From Patescibacteria group bacterium (lineage in GTDB: Bacteria > Patescibacteriota > Gracilibacteria > UBA1369 > PNNO01): a stretch of 64,000 nt of DNA. Positions 9,587-63,056 of this stretch are shown here, in pieces. Each line of letters starts with the position of its first letter. The stretch's first letter is position 1. The stretch covers positions 96,001 through 160,000 of the forward strand of contig JBHPIO010000001.1 in the NCBI GenBank assembly GCA_042568575.1, given 5' to 3'. Below the pieces are notes generated by a model that was given only the letters and a program-made list of their open reading frames with translations, had not been told where the DNA came from and searched no databases. A program made the position numbers and the translations under genes.

Positions 9587-10816
9587 ATGGAAAACAAAAA
9601 TCATAAAAAAAATGGATTTACGATAATTGAACTTCTATTGGTAATAGCACTTACAGTAATCATATTTTCAGGTGTATTTGCGGTTCAGGGAAGATTTCTT
9701 GTAAACACATACCTTGATACAAATACAGAACAGATAGTTCAGCAATTACGGCTCGCACAAATGCGTTCGATAAGTAAATTTAAAGATTCTGAGTGGGGTG
9801 TTTATTTTGACGAAGACGTGGACGGAAATGATGACAAATTTGTACTTTTTAAAGGCTCTAACTATGAAAACAGAGATCAATCATATGACATCATAACCAA
9901 TTTACCTGACTCCATAGCGCTTTCAAGCATTAACTTAACAGGCGGCACTGATTATATCGTTTTCAATAAAGTTACTGGAGCAACAAAAAACTCTGGATCA
10001 ATTCAAATTTTTGATAATCAAGAAGGTGTAAATACAATTTTAATCAATGGGAAAGGGCTTACAGGGGTAAATGAAATCCCAGCAGGAAGTGGTAGTGGTG
10101 ACTCAACTGAACCATTATCAATAACCGACTTAGCTCTATCCGGTGCCACCGAAGAAAGCCTGGATCTTTCTTGGAGTGCAACAGGAGACGATGGAATTGT
10201 CGGCATTGCAGATTTGTATGATGTCAGATATTCAACATCAACAATAACAGAAGAAAACTGGGCAACTGCAACTCACGTTGCAGCAGAACCAACGCCAGCT
10301 GCTTATGGGTCAGCAGAATCGATGACAGTTTCTGGATTATCATCCGCAACAACATATTATTTTGCCATGAAAGCTTTGGATGAAGTGCCAAATGAATCAT
10401 CCCTTTCCAATGTAGTTTCACTAACAACTTTGGATTCAAGTTCACAAACAGAATCACTAGTTGTTAATACTTCAAAAGCATATTTATCAAATGGGAATAA
10501 ATATCTTAAAGGAATCACAATAAGCAATAGCGCAGAGGAGGACATAATAATCGATAAAATGACTGTTGAATGGAATAATGAGCCATACAAAAGAACATAT
10601 CTAAGAGTAATTAGGATTAATTCGAGGAATGTTTGGGTTGGATATGGATATTCAGGTGTAGAGGTTGATATAAAGGATTTCACGCTTTCACCAAAGCAGA
10701 AAAGTTATTCAATTAATCAAATTAGATTCACTAAAAATATGAAGGGATCCAATATAACAATAACATTAACAATGGCAGACAAAAGTACCATAACAACCCC
10801 CGTACTAAAATTTTAA
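9587..10816 (+). CDS. minor pilin (FimT/GspH-like) with FN3 domain and a C-terminal beta domain
   Basis: KKNG|FTIIELL prepilin motif; FN3 pattern LSWSATGDDG...YDVRY...LSSATTYYFAMKA. Confidence 0.8.
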   Translation: MENKNHKKNGFTIIELLLVIALTVIIFSGVFAVQGRFLVNTYLDTNTEQIVQQLRLAQMRSISKFKDSEWGVYFDEDVDGNDDKFVLFKGSNYENRDQSYDIITNLPDSIALSSINLTGGTDYIVFNKVTGATKNSGSIQIFDNQEGVNTILINGKGLTGVNEIPAGSGSGDSTEPLSITDLALSGATEESLDLSWSATGDDGIVGIADLYDVRYSTSTITEENWATATHVAAEPTPAAYGSAESMTVSGLSSATTYYFAMKALDEVPNESSLSNVVSLTTLDSSSQTESLVVNTSKAYLSNGNKYLKGITISNSAEEDIIIDKMTVEWNNEPYKRTYLRVIRINSRNVWVGYGYSGVEVDIKDFTLSPKQKSYSINQIRFTKNMKGSNITITLTMADKSTITTPVLKF

Positions 10817-10817
10817 A

Positions 10818-11666
10818 ATGAACAAAATCAAAAGAAATAAAGGCAACTCAATTATTGAAATAATCATTGCGATTGGAATATTCGCTTTAGTTTTTCCTAC
10901 TTTATCGATTTTGGTAATTGGGGGTTTCAGCACTACCTTGCGAGATAGTGAACGCTTCCAGGCCGACATGTATCTGCAACAAGGATTCGAAGCAATGCGA
11001 TCTATTAGAGATTACGGTTACGCCAATTTAACCACTGGAACACACGGACTCACAAAAACAAATGGATACTGGGAATTATCAGGAAGTTCTGACACAAACG
11101 GTCAATTCACGCGCGAGATAGTAGTTGAAGAAGTAGAGAGAGACAGCAATTGTGCAATTGTTGCTAGTGGGGGAAAAGTCGACAATAACTCAAAAAAAAT
11201 AACAGCAACAATAACGTGGGACATTGAAGCCGGAAACAGCACCTCTATTTCAACAAGCCAATATTTACATAATTGGACCGATGCCACAGGATGCAATGCT
11301 TCGGATAACTTTAGCGTTGATACTTCAAGTGCATATTTATCAAGTGGCAATAAGACAATAAATGATATATTCATTGAAAACACCGGAGGAGTTGGGATAA
11401 GTATCGATAAAATAACAGTTTCATGGAGTGGAGCGCCTAGCGGCACTGATATTAAAAGAATTAAAATTGACGGAGACACTCTTTGGTCTGGAAATAAAGG
11501 TTCCGGAGAAGTATTGAATATAGAAAATTTCACACTTGATGCGGGATCAGGTGTATATGAAATAGACCAAATTAGATTCGACAAATCAATGGTTGGAACA
11601 ACAGTTAGTCTTGAATTTGAAATGACAGACACAAGCACAGCAACTATTCCTAATATTCAATTTTAA
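10818..11666 (+). CDS. minor pilin (PilV-like) with C-terminal beta domain
   Basis: NKG|NSIIEIII degenerate prepilin motif, EAMRS, FTREI, KKITATITW. Confidence 0.75.
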   Translation: MNKIKRNKGNSIIEIIIAIGIFALVFPTLSILVIGGFSTTLRDSERFQADMYLQQGFEAMRSIRDYGYANLTTGTHGLTKTNGYWELSGSSDTNGQFTREIVVEEVERDSNCAIVASGGKVDNNSKKITATITWDIEAGNSTSISTSQYLHNWTDATGCNASDNFSVDTSSAYLSSGNKTINDIFIENTGGVGISIDKITVSWSGAPSGTDIKRIKIDGDTLWSGNKGSGEVLNIENFTLDAGSGVYEIDQIRFDKSMVGTTVSLEFEMTDTSTATIPNIQF

Positions 11667-12215
11667 ATGAAAAAGCCAGTTACACAGAAAGGATTTACTC
11701 TCGTTGAGTTCATAATATATGTGGCAATAGCTTCTTTTGTGCTTATTTCAACCGTAAATGTAAGTTGGAACATTATGAGTGCACAGGCTAATTTCAATGC
11801 AAAACAGGAAGTCTACATCAACTCCAGACTAGCCATGAATCAAGTTGGAATAGTGATCAAGGAAGCCGAAGACGTACTTACTGCCCAATCTGTATTCGAT
11901 TCGCATCCTGGCGTGCTCACTTTAGATTATCCAGGAGTTAATGACGTTATAATTGATACTTACATCAAAAACATAAGTGTTGGAGGTCAGTCAGCCGCAA
12001 TTCGCAAACTTCAAATCAAGGGGATTGATGGAAGCTTTACGGATTTAACAACAGACAAAGTTAATGTTACTAACTTTAAATTAACAAACCTTACTCGTGG
12101 ATCAGAGAAAGACAACATAAATATGGAATTACGAATTGAAAAAATCAACCCAGGGGACGATCCAACATACGATGCTTCTATTGAGTTTGAAACGGCAATT
12201 TCTTTAAGAGAATAA
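11667..12215 (+). CDS. minor pilin (PilW/GspJ-like)
   Basis: QKG|FTLVEFIIY prepilin motif; position in operon. Confidence 0.8.
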   Translation: MKKPVTQKGFTLVEFIIYVAIASFVLISTVNVSWNIMSAQANFNAKQEVYINSRLAMNQVGIVIKEAEDVLTAQSVFDSHPGVLTLDYPGVNDVIIDTYIKNISVGGQSAAIRKLQIKGIDGSFTDLTTDKVNVTNFKLTNLTRGSEKDNINMELRIEKINPGDDPTYDASIEFETAISLRE

Positions 12216-12217
12216 AT

Positions 12218-12622
12218 ATGAACAAAATAATGAAAACAATTAGAAAAACAAATGAAGGTGCTGCTGTGCTAATTATTGTTATTATTATGGGGTCGGCAAT
12301 GCTATTAATTGCGTTAAGTCTCGGCATATCTTCAATTTCTGAAAATCTGATAAATCTCTATCAAAGTCAATCGAGTCGGTTGTCGCTTAGCATTGATGGT
12401 TGTGCTGAAGAAGCCTTAATACGGCTTAACAGGGATAATAGCTACAACGAAGAAACTCTTTCAATTGGAGGGACTTCTTGCACAATTAGCGTATCAGGTA
12501 GTGGAAGCAGTAGGACTATTAATGTTGCAGGAACAAAAAGCGATTACAGCAGAGAGCTGGAAATCGCAGTAAATATATCACCTACATATGCCATAACTTC
12601 ATGGCAGGAACTAACCACATAA
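12218..12622 (+). CDS. minor pilin (PilX/GspK-like)
   Basis: NEG|AAVLII lacking Glu5, GCAEEAL motif, terminal ITSWQE. Confidence 0.75.
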   Translation: MNKIMKTIRKTNEGAAVLIIVIIMGSAMLLIALSLGISSISENLINLYQSQSSRLSLSIDGCAEEALIRLNRDNSYNEETLSIGGTSCTISVSGSGSSRTINVAGTKSDYSRELEIAVNISPTYAITSWQELTT

Positions 12623-12624
12623 CT

Positions 12625-13587
12625 ATGTTCGAATTTTTTAAGAAAAGAAATCTCACTTTATATTGTACAGACACCTATGTACAAATACTCGTCCTAAAAG
12701 GCAAAAAGCGAAATATGAGAGTTGGCGCGTACGGTCAACGAAATCTATCATCAGGTATAATCAAAAACGGTGAGATTATGCAGGAAAAACAGCTAGCTAT
12801 AGAAATAATCACACTCCTTTCTGAGTTAAATATTAAAGATAAGAATTGCCTTATCGCCCTACCGAAAAATCATATTTTTGAGCATATCATTTACATGGAC
12901 TCTTCACTAAAAAAAGAGGCTTTTACAGAGAAATTAGAAGAAGAAATTAAAAAAATAATTCCAATACCTTTTCAAGAGTTAAAATATACTTATAGTGCTA
13001 CAACATACGGAAAAGCGCAGGCAGTATATGTTGTGGCCATAAAAAAAGAAATAGTTGCCAAATATTACGAAGTTTTGAAGTCCTTCTGCAATCTTAATCC
13101 TTTAGTCTTTGAATCTGAAACTTCAAGTTTAATAAGAAATGTTCCAATAGATTTGCGCGAAGATAAGGGGAAAATCCTAATTGAAGTCCTTCCAAATAAA
13201 ACTGAATGGCTCATTCTCTGGAAGGAAAATATTTTCGATAGCAATACAATATCTAAGACAGGGGATCAGGATGATATTCAAATTGTCACAAGCGACTTGT
13301 TGGAATCAATAATTAATTTTTCTAATAAAACCAAACGCAAAATAAGTGATATCTATTTAATAGGGGACAAAGAAAAAGCTGCAATTATAGGTAACTCTCT
13401 AGAACAAAGCGTGAAACTCAAACCTCAATATCTTTCTGATTTCAGAATCAACTTAAAAACTAAAAAAGAAAATTTGTCTACAAAATTTAAAGTAATTGGT
13501 GGTCTAGCACTACATGAAATGAATCAGAAAAATTCTCTTAACTTAATCCCAAAAAATCCTAAGAAGGGGGTTGCTAGAGGGGGATAA
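12625..13587 (+). CDS. PilM-like pilus assembly protein (actin-like fold, divergent)
   Basis: GIIKNGEI, IALP, IIPIPFQEL, IYLIG segments; position in operon; ATG at 12625 follows the previous stop. Confidence 0.7.
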   Translation: MFEFFKKRNLTLYCTDTYVQILVLKGKKRNMRVGAYGQRNLSSGIIKNGEIMQEKQLAIEIITLLSELNIKDKNCLIALPKNHIFEHIIYMDSSLKKEAFTEKLEEEIKKIIPIPFQELKYTYSATTYGKAQAVYVVAIKKEIVAKYYEVLKSFCNLNPLVFESETSSLIRNVPIDLREDKGKILIEVLPNKTEWLILWKENIFDSNTISKTGDQDDIQIVTSDLLESIINFSNKTKRKISDIYLIGDKEKAAIIGNSLEQSVKLKPQYLSDFRINLKTKKENLSTKFKVIGGLALHEMNQKNSLNLIPKNPKKGVARGG

Positions 13588-13599
13588 TTGATGTATAAT
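13571..13599 (+). promoter_or_regulatory. sigma70 promoter of the major pilin
   Basis: TTGCTA-17 bp-TATAAT. Confidence 0.6.
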
Positions 13600-13686
13600 A
13601 ATAGTAGTTGAAGTAAATCTTCGGTTACCTCAAGTTAATTTGTTCTTTGACCTTTCGTGCCTTAAATAACCTTAATATAAACATTT

Positions 13687-14220
13687 ATGGGTAATCTATG
13701 CAAAACGCATAGGAGCACAAGGAGCACTCGGAGCAACAAGGGGTTCACCCTCATCGAATTAATCATCGTAATAGCAGTAATTGCTATTCTTGCGGGCTCG
13801 ATTTTCGTAGCCATCGACCCAGCAAGGCGTTTAAACGAATCACGTAATGCAAGACGTGCAAGCGATGTAACAACAGTTTTAGACGCTGTTATAAAATACC
13901 AGGCTGATAATGAAGGAACTCATTATTCAACCGTGGCTGCATTAACTGCTGGTAATTACTATACTATCGGTACATGCGCTACAGGTGGAAATAGTGATTG
14001 TGGAGCTCAAACTACACAGGCAGCTTGTGTAGATCTTTCAAGCATTGGGTCAAACTACCTTGCATCTATACCAATGGATCCAAAAACTGGAACTGCTGCA
14101 AAATCAGACTACTATCTGATGGTTGATTCAAATGGAGCGGTAACTGTTGGTTCATGCGACCCTGAAGGAGAAGGTTCAGGTGGAAGCGGAACTGCACCAA
14201 CAATTGAGTTAAGTCGCTAA
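13687..14220 (+). CDS. major type IV pilin
   Basis: NKG|FTLIELIIVIAVIAILA, ARNARRASDV, YLASIPMDP, four Cys in the mature part; own promoter. Confidence 0.9.
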   Translation: MGNLCKTHRSTRSTRSNKGFTLIELIIVIAVIAILAGSIFVAIDPARRLNESRNARRASDVTTVLDAVIKYQADNEGTHYSTVAALTAGNYYTIGTCATGGNSDCGAQTTQAACVDLSSIGSNYLASIPMDPKTGTAAKSDYYLMVDSNGAVTVGSCDPEGEGSGGSGTAPTIELSR

Positions 14221-14624: not shown

Positions 14625-15185
14625 TTAGAGATTCAGAAAATTGAACATCAATTTCGCCCCATATTCTGTCATAAATGACTCGGGATGGAATTGAACACCA
14701 TAAACCTCGTAATCTTTATGCTTAATTGCCATAGGGATTTTGTCGTTAGTCCAGGCAACAACATTTAGACATGCCGGGATATCGTCTATTATAAGAGAAT
14801 GATAACGAGCAACATCAATATTATTTTCAATGTTATTAAATAGATCATTTTGCGTATGTTGAATATTCGAAGTTTTGCCATGAACCGGCAGGGGAGAGGC
14901 AACTGTTTCTCCACCAAAGACTTCATTTATGCATTGCATCCCCAAGCATACACCTAAAATAGGCTTTGTCTTATAGTATTGCCCTATAAGTGATTTGGAA
15001 ATCCCTGCATCTTTAGGAGTTTTAGGACCAGGTGAAATCACGAATTTGTCAAATTCATCAAATAATGGTGTGATTTCTTGATCATTTCGTTTAACAATAA
15101 CTTCACATTGTTTCAACGATTTAATTTGTTGAAACAAATTGTATGTAAACGAATCAAAATTATCGATAAGTAAAATTTTTTGCAT
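14625..15185 (-). CDS. pabA: aminodeoxychorismate/anthranilate synthase component II (glutamine amidotransferase)
   Basis: LIDNFDSFTYNL, ISPGP, LGVCLG, RYHSL, QFHPES; start at MQKILL. Confidence 0.9.
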   Translation of the reverse strand: MQKILLIDNFDSFTYNLFQQIKSLKQCEVIVKRNDQEITPLFDEFDKFVISPGPKTPKDAGISKSLIGQYYKTKPILGVCLGMQCINEVFGGETVASPLPVHGKTSNIQHTQNDLFNNIENNIDVARYHSLIIDDIPACLNVVAWTNDKIPMAIKHKDYEVYGVQFHPESFMTEYGAKLMFNFLNL

Positions 15186-15442
15186 AAAAATTTTTATATG
15201 GGGGCGAATTGAACTATACAAAATTTATTAGGGAAAAGGAAGAAAAACATATACAAATTTTTAGACGAAGAGTATGATTGGACGTTTTTTTTCTTTAAAC
15301 GCCTAAAATCGAACGTTTTGAATATCGCGCTTATACAAGCCATTGCTCGGGGATCGGGGTAGAGGAATATCACGGAATTTAAACTGAATCATATTTATAG
15401 ATAGAAAAAAAGCTTATTCTAAGCCTAAACACACTTTTGTTT

Positions 15443-15500: not shown

Positions 15501-17108
15501 TTATTTCAAATCTTTAACCATGAATGTATCTCCTAATTTGAATCCACGTTTTCGATAATACTCTCGAACTCCAATTCCGCTAATCACGGCCAATTTCGAA
15601 AGTTTATATTCAGAAGTAATTTCTTCTGCACGCTCAAGTAGCCTCTTCCCGTAGCCCTGATGCTGAACCGCTAAATCATCATGTTGCGTTAATGGAATCT
15701 GAGCACCATAAGTATGCAGCTCACGAATCACAGCAGCATATTCTAAATCTTTTATAAAATGCTTCTCGCCAGAAAAAATCTGCGAAGGTATTCTTAAGCG
15801 CAAAAAAGCAATAAGCTTATTCTGTTTTATATCTTCAAAACTCAAGAAATGCTCTTTCCCCTCAGATGAATCGTAAACTCGCTCTATCAGTTTAACGTCT
15901 TTAATATCGACCTGAGTATCACGAACTTCCCTACATCGAATGCATTTGCAACTCTCCCCTTTCTCGTACATATTTGCATGAACCACTTGCCGCAAATTAG
16001 AAACTGTTGAACCACCAAGAATACTTTCGGCCGGAATATCCCTATATAAACGTGCAATTCGAACATATTCAGGAACCAATGTTTTCATTTCACTAATAAG
16101 TTCAATTAGCTCGTCGTCTGAATAAGGCTTATGTTTGCCATCCTTGAACACTTTCTCAAGCTCACTATGAGGAGTAACAACACACGGATAAATCTTAAGC
16201 CAATCAGGTTTAAAATCAGGATCTTTAAATAATTCTGCAAACATTTCGAGATCTTTTTTTGGCGTGCTTCCATAAAGATTTGGCATCATGTGGGCGTTTA
16301 TCTTGAACCCGGCATCTTTAAGAAGCTTCATTGCAGTGCGGATCTCCCCCACTCCGTGTCCCCTCTTATTTTTCTTGAGAATCTTATCATCAAGCGCTTG
16401 AATCCCTATTTCTACTTTTGTAGCCCCAAGATTTCGCATGCGCTTAACCTCATCTATATTAATCCAGTCCGGACGTGTTTCTAGAGAAAGACCAACACAT
16501 CTATGTTTTGCAGTCTCATTTATCTTCTGTGCATCCTCAAGTGAAGTTGATTTTTCGCCTTCATTAAGCGCATTATAAACTCCTCGTATAAAAGAAGTCT
16601 GATAGTTTTTTGGATAGTATGAAAAAGTTCCACCGGCAACAATAATCTCAATTTTGTCTGTTGGATGACCTGTTCTTTCAAGCCCCTGAAGACGATTTGT
16701 AACCTGACGATAACCATCAAAATCGTTGAGTATTGCTCTCATCATTGCGGGCTCATTCGAAAGGTAACTCTTTGGCATTTCCGGTTCAGAAGGGCAAAAA
16801 ATACACGTTCCCGGACAAGCATAATGCTTCGTTAAGACAGTAACATTAGCAATCCCGGATTGTGATCTAACTTTCCGCTTTATTATTAAGTCAAAAAAGA
16901 CTTTGTTTTCCTGTATATCACCATCTTTCACCAATTTCCGATAGGTCTTAATTAAAGAAACATTAGTAGGCGAACTTATACGATACTTTAGGCTATATTC
17001 GTTCTTTAACGTCTGAAGATCTTTCTGTTTAGTGATATTTTTAGAAAGCGCTTCACAGAGCAAATCTTCCAAAATTTTATTAAGCGGTTTTCGCTGCTTG
17101 CAGTCCAT
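15501..17108 (-). CDS. elp3: Elp3 tRNA uridine(34) carboxymethyltransferase (radical SAM plus KAT/GNAT)
   Basis: RSQSG, CPGTCIFCP, PKSY, GGTF, ETRPD, KIYP, IRCRE, IRELHTYG, QHQGYGKRLL, VISGIGVREYYRK. Confidence 0.93.
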   Translation of the reverse strand: MDCKQRKPLNKILEDLLCEALSKNITKQKDLQTLKNEYSLKYRISSPTNVSLIKTYRKLVKDGDIQENKVFFDLIIKRKVRSQSGIANVTVLTKHYACPGTCIFCPSEPEMPKSYLSNEPAMMRAILNDFDGYRQVTNRLQGLERTGHPTDKIEIIVAGGTFSYYPKNYQTSFIRGVYNALNEGEKSTSLEDAQKINETAKHRCVGLSLETRPDWINIDEVKRMRNLGATKVEIGIQALDDKILKKNKRGHGVGEIRTAMKLLKDAGFKINAHMMPNLYGSTPKKDLEMFAELFKDPDFKPDWLKIYPCVVTPHSELEKVFKDGKHKPYSDDELIELISEMKTLVPEYVRIARLYRDIPAESILGGSTVSNLRQVVHANMYEKGESCKCIRCREVRDTQVDIKDVKLIERVYDSSEGKEHFLSFEDIKQNKLIAFLRLRIPSQIFSGEKHFIKDLEYAAVIRELHTYGAQIPLTQHDDLAVQHQGYGKRLLERAEEITSEYKLSKLAVISGIGVREYYRKRGFKLGDTFMVKDLK

Positions 17109-17153
17109 ATGCCTTTCTTGTATGGTTATTATTGCGGATCCTAATTCTATCCT

Positions 17154-17828
17154 ATGAAAGAGTCGGTGGCAAAACAATTATTGCAGAAAGTTCAGGAGGA
17201 TTATGCGACTATTGCAGATGAATTTTCCCAAACAAGACAGTATGCATGGCCAGAATTTAAACATTTTAAGAAATATATTAACCCAGGTGATACAATTCTG
17301 GATCTTGGATGTGGAAATGGTCGTTTATATGAATCTTTGAAGGATTTACAAAACATAAAATATATTGGGATAGATAATAACAAAAAATTTATACAGCTTG
17401 CGCAAAAAAAGTATACAGACACAAAATTTATAGTCGGAGATGCACTAAATATCCCCCTAAAAGAGGATATCGATATCGTGCTTTCTATTGCATCTTTACA
17501 CCACATCGCCTCATCACGTTTGCGCAAAAAAAGTGTACGCGAATTATCAAGAATTACAAAGAAAAATGGATACGTCATTGTTACTGTTTGGGATCTCTTC
17601 CAAAAGCGCTACAGGAAATACATACTCCAAAGCTTGTTCAAATATTTTATTCAATTTGGGAAGTATGACTGGAATGATACGTTCATCCCATGGGGCAAGA
17701 CTGGAGTTAAAAGATACTATCATGCGTTCACAAAGCGTGAGCTAAAAAAACTCTTTGAAAAGAACGGGTTCGAGATAGTAGAATTATTTAAAACGAATAA
17801 CCTTTGCTTGGTATGCAGAAAAAAATAG
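17154..17828 (+). CDS. class I SAM methyltransferase, Trm9/ALKBH8-like
   Basis: YATIADEFSQTR..AWP, LDLGCGNG, SIASLHH, GYVIVTVW, DTFIPW, RYYHAF in the Trm9/ALKBH8 motif order. Confidence 0.75.
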   Translation: MKESVAKQLLQKVQEDYATIADEFSQTRQYAWPEFKHFKKYINPGDTILDLGCGNGRLYESLKDLQNIKYIGIDNNKKFIQLAQKKYTDTKFIVGDALNIPLKEDIDIVLSIASLHHIASSRLRKKSVRELSRITKKNGYVIVTVWDLFQKRYRKYILQSLFKYFIQFGKYDWNDTFIPWGKTGVKRYYHAFTKRELKKLFEKNGFEIVELFKTNNLCLVCRKK

Positions 17829-18610
17829 ATGTACTGAACGTAAGATTCGACAATGTAACTATCGAGGAAACTCTCGATTATATTTTCGATCATATTAACA
17901 GAGGAAAAAAGGGATATCTTTGTACACCTAATCCTGAAATGCTTCTTGAAGCAGAGAGAAATCACGACTTCAAGAAAGTCTTAAATCACTCATTATTAAA
18001 TATCCCAGATGGAATAGGGATTTTATGGGCAGCAACTCATATTGCACGTAAATCATCGAAACTTAAGGCATTCTTCACCCTTCCATTAATTGCATTTATG
18101 CCAAGTATGTTTAAAAAGATCCTTAGAGAACGAGTAACAGGATCAGATTTAATGAAGAAAATCGCAAGAGAGGCGGCGAGAGCAAACAAAAGCATCTTTC
18201 TACTCGGTGCTGCCGAAGGAATCGCAGAAGAAACAGCTGAGAAATTAAAAAAAACATATACCGGATTACAAATTGCAGGAACTTATGCCGGCTCCCCTAC
18301 CCCAGATGAAGAAGAATTCATAATCAATGGCATCAACGATGCATCTCCAGACATACTTTTTGTTGCGTATGGCGCGCCAAGACAGGAAATGTGGATATCC
18401 AGGAACCTCAAATACTTAAACAGCGTAAAAATAGCAATAGGGATCGGAGGCGCTTTCGACTTTATTGCCGGAAAAAGAAAACGAGCTCCAAAGTGGATGC
18501 AAAAACTAGGACTCGAATGGCTTTTCAGACTAATTCAAGAACCGTCACGCTGGAAACGCATCTACAACGCCACAATTAAATTCCCAACAAAAGTAATTAA
18601 AAAACTTTGA
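17813..18610 (+). CDS. WecB/TagA/CpsF family glycosyltransferase
   Basis: TPNPE, PDGIG, RVTGSDL, FVAYGAPRQE, GIGGAFD, RAPKWMQ..GLEWLFRL..EP.RWKR. Confidence 0.92.
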   Translation: MQKKIDVLNVRFDNVTIEETLDYIFDHINRGKKGYLCTPNPEMLLEAERNHDFKKVLNHSLLNIPDGIGILWAATHIARKSSKLKAFFTLPLIAFMPSMFKKILRERVTGSDLMKKIAREAARANKSIFLLGAAEGIAEETAEKLKKTYTGLQIAGTYAGSPTPDEEEFIINGINDASPDILFVAYGAPRQEMWISRNLKYLNSVKIAIGIGGAFDFIAGKRKRAPKWMQKLGLEWLFRLIQEPSRWKRIYNATIKFPTKVIKKL

Positions 18611-62979: not shown

Positions 62980-63056
62980 GGGCGATTAGCTCAGTTGGCT
63001 AGAGCACCTGGTTTACACCCAGGGGGTCGTAGGTTCGAATCCTACATCGCCCACCA
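62980..63056 (+). tRNA. tRNA-Val(TAC)
   Basis: acceptor GGGCGAT/ATCGCCC-A-CCA, anticodon arm CCTGG-TTTACAC-CCAGG, GTTCGAATC T-loop. Confidence 0.97.

Follow-up and report, generated by a model that had tools for sequence, protein, structure and literature searches.

A close described counterpart of the genes considered here is the archaeal route to 5-methoxycarbonylmethyluridine (mcm5U) at wobble position U34 of tRNA. In this prokaryotic two-step route Trm9-Trm112 (HVO_1032 in Haloferax volcanii) makes mcm5U after a stand-alone Elp3 has acted, and the Elp3-Trm9 gene cluster of Sulfolobus solfataricus is a precedent for clustering of the two genes (PMC6144793, PMC5372719). Of the Elongator subunits, Elp3 is the sole one conserved in archaea and bacteria, and in archaea as in numerous bacteria it works without partners (PMC13315578); the Elp3 of Dehalococcoides mccartyi (5L7J, 6IA6) was described as a rare bacterial example in a study whose accessible sections name no downstream enzyme (PMC6367351). 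The MnmE-MnmG system, which forms 5-carboxymethylaminomethyluridine (cmnm5U) or 5-aminomethyluridine (nm5U) at U34, modifies the same C5 position and is a functional alternative, with enzymes and chemistry unrelated to those of Elp3-Trm9. In their accessible sections, one study reports Trm9-type methyltransferases as undetected in bacterial genomes (PMC5372719) and a 2020 review credits bacteria with only cmnm5U, 5-methylaminomethyluridine (mnm5U), and nm5U among modifications of this group (PMC7694415). Here, we examined a pair of divergent genes, elp3 and a Trm9/ALKBH8-like methyltransferase (MTase), in a 64,000-nucleotide stretch of a Patescibacteria genome (the window), starting from a reading of the sequence alone (the sequence-only reading) that had proposed a bacterial Elongator-type wobble pathway.

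We consider it highly probable, judging from gene content and sequence, that this pair constitutes a bacterial counterpart of the wobble-uridine pathway of eukaryotes and some archaea, leading from 5-carboxymethyluridine (cm5U) to mcm5U34 and its 2-thio form (mcm5s2U) that replaces MnmEG and that, in Patescibacteria, most likely needs no Trm112. In the proposed route, stand-alone Elp3, with a [4Fe-4S] cluster, S-adenosylmethionine (SAM), and acetyl-CoA (or acetate), would carboxymethylate U34 at C5 to give cm5U, and the Trm9-like MTase would use SAM to methylate the cm5U carboxylate to mcm5U. MnmA, drawing sulfur from NifS, would probably add the 2-thio group on tRNA-Lys/Glu/Gln, yielding mcm5s2U; thiolation by this bacterial enzyme would be unlike that of the archaeal system.

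The source assembly (G000) comprises 1.20 Mb in 31 contigs and is 81.8% complete, and every gene absence reported for it is subject to that completeness; the window corresponds to C1:96001-160000. The names of homologs (Peregrinibacteria and Gracilibacteria) agree with its placement in Patescibacteria. The predicted radical-SAM plus lysine acetyltransferase (KAT) tRNA U34 carboxymethylase gene, elp3 (15501..17108, minus strand), encodes 535 aa from an ATG at 17108; a longer open reading frame (ORF) from TTG 17177 would run into the MTase gene. The MTase gene (17154..17828, plus strand) encodes a Trm9/ALKBH8-type class I SAM carboxyl methyltransferase of 224 aa with eight essential-residue matches. 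The spacer between the divergent ATGs (17109..17153) is exactly 45 bp, in agreement with the gap of about 45 bp given in the sequence-only reading.

The window Elp3 scored 584 bits against TIGR01211 (cut-off, 350), and its PDB matches were led by the archaeal-type 6ia8 (E 2e-130), ahead of bacterial 5l7j (9e-115) and eukaryotic Elp3 (~1e-102). The motifs CPGTCIFC (position 98), CKCIRCRE (387), RELH (462), QHQGYG (482), and SGIGVR (510) were all intact, and we take them to represent the radical-SAM cysteines, the Zn-linker cysteines, and the KAT domain. With a score above the curated cut-off, intact motifs, and these PDB matches, the initial identification of elp3 was confirmed. Membership in this family suggests that the protein would form cm5U34. 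The window Elp3 belongs to the same family as the D. mccartyi enzyme but carries an N-terminal extension of the archaeal-Elp3 kind that the latter lacks.

The motifs originally listed for the MTase were all found in its translation (YATIADEFSQTRQYAWP, DLGCGNG, SIASLHH, TVW, DTFIPW, and RYYH). Pfam and NCBIfam searches returned generic class I methyltransferase families only, and none of the NCBIfam models reached its cut-off. Yarrowia lipolytica Trm9 (5cm2_Z, E 1.5e-13) led the 28 PDB matches, at 23-26% identity to Trm9, and a profile of 44 MTase family sequences separated 5cm2 (3.4e-24) from the next structure (3.6e-17). The predicted model (predicted local distance difference test score, 95.7) showed a class I SAM fold with a two-stranded lid after beta5 (strands 175-180 and 185-190), and Foldseek ranked 5cm2_Z first. 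A reciprocal profile, built from nine archaeal and eight giant-virus homologs with no Patescibacteria row, recovered 5cm2 at 144 bits (next, 81) and, in G000, the MTase at 194.5 bits (next gene, 58.2). Automatic annotation at JGI already names some homologs ‘TRM9’ or ‘alkB family protein 8’.

The active site was a discriminating feature. The eight yeast Trm9 residues at which mutation impairs the enzyme (R29, D72, H116, W145, W168, R241, Y243, and N271; PMC4678810, Table 2) correspond to R28, D74, H117, W146, W180, R187, Y189, and N216 in the MTase, all eight kept, and across 44 close homologs each of these columns either does not vary or is conserved in 90% or more of the sequences. W180 was retained in 119 of 148 wider representatives (F in 22). 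Among the fetched loci, genes with at least 98 bits against the family profile kept 6-8 of the eight residues, and lower-scoring generic methyltransferases 1-4. By fold, active site, and reciprocal match, the tree aside, the MTase belongs to the Trm9 catalytic family, as the sequence-only reading had it. It shares with the yeast Trm9-Trm112 complex (5CM2) and the methyltransferase domain of animal ALKBH8 the essential residues, the fold, the insertion after beta5, and the predicted reaction; it differs from them in being bacterial, in consisting of a single domain without the RNA recognition motif and AlkB parts of ALKBH8, and in lying head to head with elp3. A second Trm9-like paralog was observed in family f14 (L047 in G058, L048 in G034, and G082:C5:36195-36926); in the two paralogs inspected the catalytic arginine is gone (M or P at position 28). 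The Elp3 frames of this family are long (605-721 aa).

Co-occurrence was assessed in 221 Patescibacteria genomes, G000 and 220 others that were at least 85% complete. The MTase profile matched 79 of them at E <= 1e-20, and 72 were retained; six were excluded because the match ends before the C-terminal RYY motif (G024, G051, G066, G139, G193, and G219) and G129 because it fails the motif check, which the partial match of G093 passes. This check was done on the loci of 48 genomes, the others being full-length matches at E <= 1.1e-29, and G034 was counted although R28 is absent from its only match. Elp3 was present in 93 genomes, so that the protein called rare among bacteria is common in this phylum, and in 71 of the 72 with a Trm9-like gene (exception, G067). 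The two genes were head to head within 600 bp in 53 of these 71, divergent at 0.8-3.5 kb in seven, far apart on one contig in two, and on different contigs in nine. MnmG matched eight genomes, none with Elp3 or a Trm9-like gene. MnmA was found in 195 of the 221; it was absent from families f10 (0/3) and f29 (0/11).

The same association was observed in a second phylum. Among 91 Chloroflexota genomes (the phylum of the Anaerolineales record G381), 20 had a full-length Trm9-like gene, with two more holding partial matches only, and Elp3 occurred in exactly the same 20; 17 of these pairs were head to head and three were on different contigs. MnmG was found in none of the 20 pair genomes versus 20 of 30 Elp3-negative genomes searched (of 71), so that in neither phylum (221 Patescibacteria and 50 Chloroflexota genomes) did MnmE-MnmG and the pair occur together. 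G406 encodes an Elp3 nearly identical to the crystallized D. mccartyi protein 5l7j (985 bits), and beside it a head-to-head Trm9-like gene with 8/8 residues. In a wider GTDB scan, the best 80 of 438 confirmed loci comprised 71 non-archaeal and nine archaeal ones; the gene was head to head with elp3 in 60 of the former, and elp3 was nearby in one of the latter. Other neighbors vary between lineages while the pair stays. Because the head-to-head layout is kept in 53/71 Patescibacteria and 17/20 Chloroflexota two-gene genomes, it goes beyond chance, and the linkage expected in relatives was found across both phyla.

The rest of the G000 gene complement was examined for the enzymes that bacteria use at this position. 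MnmG and MnmE were not found (no PF01134, PF12631, or TIGR00136 match), nor was a U32 peptidase of the TrhP family (PF01136); the best CmoB candidate reached 22 bits (cut-off, 275), and TrhO and CmoA were not covered by a genome-wide search. MnmA and a NifU-NifS pair are encoded, which makes Fe-S and sulfur supply plausible. The two-gene Elongator-type pathway of the sequence-only reading is supported by gene identities, active site, co-occurrence, synteny, and MnmG exclusion. G000 has 24 tRNA genes, nine with U34. The tRNA-Val(TAC) gene named as a possible substrate is real (62980..63056, plus strand), but it lies 45 kb from the pair, which gives no evidence of linkage, and it was rejected as part of the locus; its product is a possible Elp3 substrate. 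Yeast tRNA-Val(UAC) carries 5-carbamoylmethyluridine (ncm5U), so this tRNA is a doubtful Trm9 substrate. ARAGORN also called a tRNA-Gly with anticodon ACC (G000:C2:49086-49159), unusual in bacteria and imperfect-looking, which is possibly a mis-call.

Archaeal Trm9 needs Trm112, and the sequence-only reading had noted no Trm112-like ORF near the pair and suggested that the MTase may do without it. PF03966 (Trm112) gave no match across the whole G000 assembly, bearing out the absence, and with no Trm112 encoded there as searched, the window pair is not a Trm9-Trm112 holoenzyme. PF03966 matched 15 of the 221 Patescibacteria genomes, in every case within a frame of 201-758 aa, and no short stand-alone Trm112 was found; the eight frames inspected belong to longer proteins, which judging by their sequences are for the most part fusions with methyltransferases or resemble PriA. 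At the interface, Y. lipolytica residues V59, F78, V102, A110, P112, F116, E100, R115, and D117 correspond to T47, K69, I93, P101, K103, I106, K91, D105, and D107, placing T47, K69, and K103 at three of six hydrophobic positions; a yeast N89K substitution, equivalent to K91, helps break the Trm9-Trm112 complex (PMC4678810). Position 69 is mostly polar in archaeal and viral homologs too, which makes this surface test weak; the stronger evidence is that no stand-alone Trm112 was found among the phylum genomes sampled. Trm112 independence is likely in Patescibacteria, but in Chloroflexota a 67-91 aa Trm112-like ORF was present in 10 of 20 pair genomes (no match in G406, G418, G435, and G437). These ORFs, the shared polar surface, and the shortness of PF03966 (40 positions), which could miss divergent activators, would also fit a Trm9-family tRNA enzyme that differs in its details, relying on an unrecognized activator (a divergent Trm112 or Elp3) or forming a product other than mcm5U, and an H. 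volcanii trm9 mutant showed no cm5U accumulation (PMC6144793). We regard this as unlikely, given the PF03966 matches confined to longer proteins, the altered interface with its complex-breaking class of substitution at K91, and the retention of all cm5U-contacting residues.

Other explanations would remove the MTase from tRNA altogether. A WecG/TagA glycosyltransferase gene (17813..18610, plus strand; PF03808, E 1.2e-60; probable ATG at 17813), left out of the sequence-only reading, overlaps the last 16 nt of the MTase gene. WecG-MTase fusions occur in several relatives (P0127, P0137, P0171, P0174, P0269, and P0270), and also in G188 and G123, where elp3 is located elsewhere. Since Trm9 chemistry is carboxylate methylation, the MTase could instead esterify a sugar-acid carboxylate in cell-envelope synthesis, its link to elp3 being incidental. 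This is very improbable: among the first 30 loci, WecG follows the MTase in only five, which all come from the window genome's order, and it does so in 11 of the best 80 of 438 GTDB loci, mostly with Gracilibacteria, Peregrinibacteria, or Peribacteria titles; WecG does not neighbor the homologs of archaea and viruses, whereas Elp3 accompanies the MTase in 71/72 and 20/20 genomes. The WecG link is probably local gene-order conservation with occasional fusion, mainly in this class, with no role in the tRNA pathway expected, and WecG was down-weighted as a pathway member. The generic family assignments and low identity to Trm9 would also be expected if the MTase were a generic class I enzyme of the UbiE/BioC kind that acts on small molecules and has stayed next to elp3 through inertia of gene order. 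Yet no NCBIfam family reached its cut-off, the essential residues number eight versus 1-4 in generic genes, the reciprocal profile leaves a wide gap, and the pair persists as neighbors change, with MTase presence tracking Elp3 also in genomes that keep the two genes at a distance (G188 and G203); we give this alternative scarcely any weight.

In a quick tree of 101 rows built for the MTase, bacterial sequences formed one branch (Shimodaira-Hasegawa-like approximate likelihood ratio test [SH-aLRT], 87) and archaeal and viral sequences another (83). In a tree of 51 rows, 19 Patescibacteria and seven Chloroflexota rows grouped at 97/92, apart from archaeal and viral rows and with one long outgroup row inside, and three small-genome Chloroflexota rows fell separately from this main bacterial group. 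Both trees are subsamples; neither the donor nor the direction of transfer is visible in them, and the 51-row tree does not fix the root. They have no eukaryotic row because the search for longer homologs gave WecG fusions and unrelated proteins only, with no ALKBH8. The trees are consistent with an old bacterial lineage of the Trm9 family. Seven genes (L205, L208, L209, L216, L219, L223, and L251) nest among Patescibacteria despite Gammaproteobacteria, Pacearchaeota, or Bdellovibrionales labels, which may be wrong. Giant viruses hold further homologs: 72 of 79 viral loci scored high on the MTase family profile, the same motif set is present, and many giant-virus contigs (L101-L171) encode a Trm9 with all active-site residues. 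Elp3 lay within the 4-kb flank of the Trm9-like gene in two of the 79, L118:1296-4603 and L120:1806-4597, where it stands beside that gene on the same strand. A phage collection gave one partial, generic match to the MTase.

Several observations weigh against the proposed pathway. No clean Trm9 clade was recovered, with deep support of 41 in the 101-row tree, which had three outgroup rows inside, and of 61/70, and with eukaryotic rows absent from both trees. The structural comparison by VIA placed 5cm2 12th (Z 20.9, root mean square deviation 1.9 A, 168 aligned), with many methyltransferases within 2 Z, and therefore the fold alone does not discriminate Trm9, as the active site does; the top VIA match, 3e23, has been described as the closest structure to Trm9 (PMC4678810). 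The Y243 equivalent, Y189, is not constant among the wider representatives, 97 of 148 having Y. Neither MetK (SAM synthetase) nor SufB was matched in G000, and the missing MetK leaves the supply of SAM, which Elp3 and the MTase both need, without explanation. Because 22 of the 93 Elp3 genomes lack the MTase, including all nine of family f24, and none of Elp3, Trm9, and MnmG was matched in 120 of the 221 genomes, the pathway is dispensable in Patescibacteria. Related genomes are also not independent samples, and for this reason counts are given instead of P values.

A gene swap at the same position bears on the fate of the cm5U carboxylate. Twenty of the 22 Elp3-only loci were fetched, and in G013, G129, and G176 elp3 is adjoined by a 263-283 aa gene with the synthetase domain of asparagine synthetase and no glutaminase domain (the G129 copy is cut by the contig end). 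G176 has flanking genes in common with the same-family genome G084, which has Trm9 in the slot, and the flanks of G129 and G013 are shared with the Trm9-bearing G064. Searching the 221 genomes independently with PF00733 gave short frames for G013, G129, G176, and G063, plus contig-end fragments; the G063 frame is unlinked, in a genome without an Elp3 match. An asparagine-synthetase profile that included G013 and G176, run against 381 genomes at least 70% complete, matched seven, six of which have stand-alone genes (four families, three of the genomes from one genus). The short genes beside elp3 were L062:2454-3305 (G013), L072:3322-4113 (G176), L069:5834-6265 (G129), L341 (G263), L342 (G235), and L344 (G315); in genome coordinates, three of the short asparagine-synthetase-like genes are G013:C11:14468-15280, G176:C2:232836-233621, and G315:C1:116044-116799. 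Each of the six stand-alone genes from the profile search neighbors elp3: four are in head-to-head orientation, one is in tandem, and one has a gene in between. None of the six genomes has a Trm9-like gene. The seventh match, in G164 (L346:539-2581), is a 680-aa fusion of glutaminase and asparagine-synthetase domains, on a short unlinked contig; we read its third domain as diphthamide-synthase. This fusion is archaeal-looking on a bacterial assembly contig, possibly by contamination or transfer. In the eight f24 loci fetched (L063, L065, L066, L067, L070, L071, L074, and L075), no short asparagine-synthetase gene was found; cm5U may be final in this family, or capped by another enzyme.

The enzyme that forms ncm5U is given as unknown in PMC7694415, and ncm5U has been discussed as a possible default product (PMC10275265). 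The short asparagine-synthetase gene is a candidate for the enzyme amidating cm5U to ncm5U, as its carboxylate-to-amide chemistry would fit, and the swap supports the idea that the slot beside elp3 handles the cm5U carboxylate. Against amidation, elp3 was found near none of the short metagenome relatives at 80 loci, many of them on short contigs and many archaeal-like by protein names, so that a link to elp3 has been demonstrated in the Patescibacteria genes alone. The top 18 archaeal-type loci share other neighbors, which from their sequences (L260-L277) we take to be adenylosuccinate lyase-like in 15 and QueD/PTPS-like in 11; this archaeal-like group could alternatively have a deazapurine role. 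We tentatively propose, with more doubt than confidence, that in Patescibacteria and part of Chloroflexota MnmEG is replaced by elp3 plus a swappable cm5U cap, usually a Trm112-free Trm9 and, in at least four Patescibacteria families, an asparagine-synthetase-type ATP pyrophosphatase that would yield ncm5U.

The sequence-only reading had also called the two genes co-regulated, for which no support was found. The spacer region contains two sigma-70-like sites versus 3.1 expected in shuffles; the elp3 site (17172-17144) extends into the MTase start and is not conserved in relatives. Across 48 head-to-head loci, an elp3-strand site occurred in 13 and an MTase-strand site in eight, versus 11.7 in shuffles, at scattered positions, and a shared divergent promoter is not supported. 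Downstream of elp3, a glutamine amidotransferase gene (14625-15221) was considered as the amide donor for ncm5U and rejected, as its product resembles anthranilate/aminodeoxychorismate synthase component II; no match to it was found in the fetched related loci. Further along, positions 9587-14220 read from sequence as a run of pilin-like genes whose N-termini resemble those of type IV prepilins, together with a PilM-like gene and then a response regulator.

We found no literature on a bacterial Elp3-Trm9 pair or an asparagine-synthetase-like ncm5U enzyme in a partial coverage of the field; the accessible sections of PMC12710937 do not treat bacteria beyond known points, and the main text of a 2026 preprint on methyltransferases of the candidate phyla radiation, as far as it was accessible, does not mention Trm9, Elp3, or ALKBH8. 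If the proposed pathway is correct, about a third of the sampled Patescibacteria and a fifth of the sampled Chloroflexota would make the ‘eukaryotic’ mcm5(s2)U, a tRNA modification new to bacteria, by a route combining archaeal-type C5 enzymes with bacterial MnmA. It would also supply the downstream step that has been missing for the bacterial Elp3 studied structurally, be testable in a cultured organism, and offer a possibly Trm112-free Trm9 for work on mechanism and structure. The gene swap beside elp3 provides a concrete candidate for ncm5U synthesis; if it is borne out, the asparagine-synthetase-type enzyme would be the ncm5U synthase that has long been missing, and would give a lead to its counterparts in eukaryotes and archaea.

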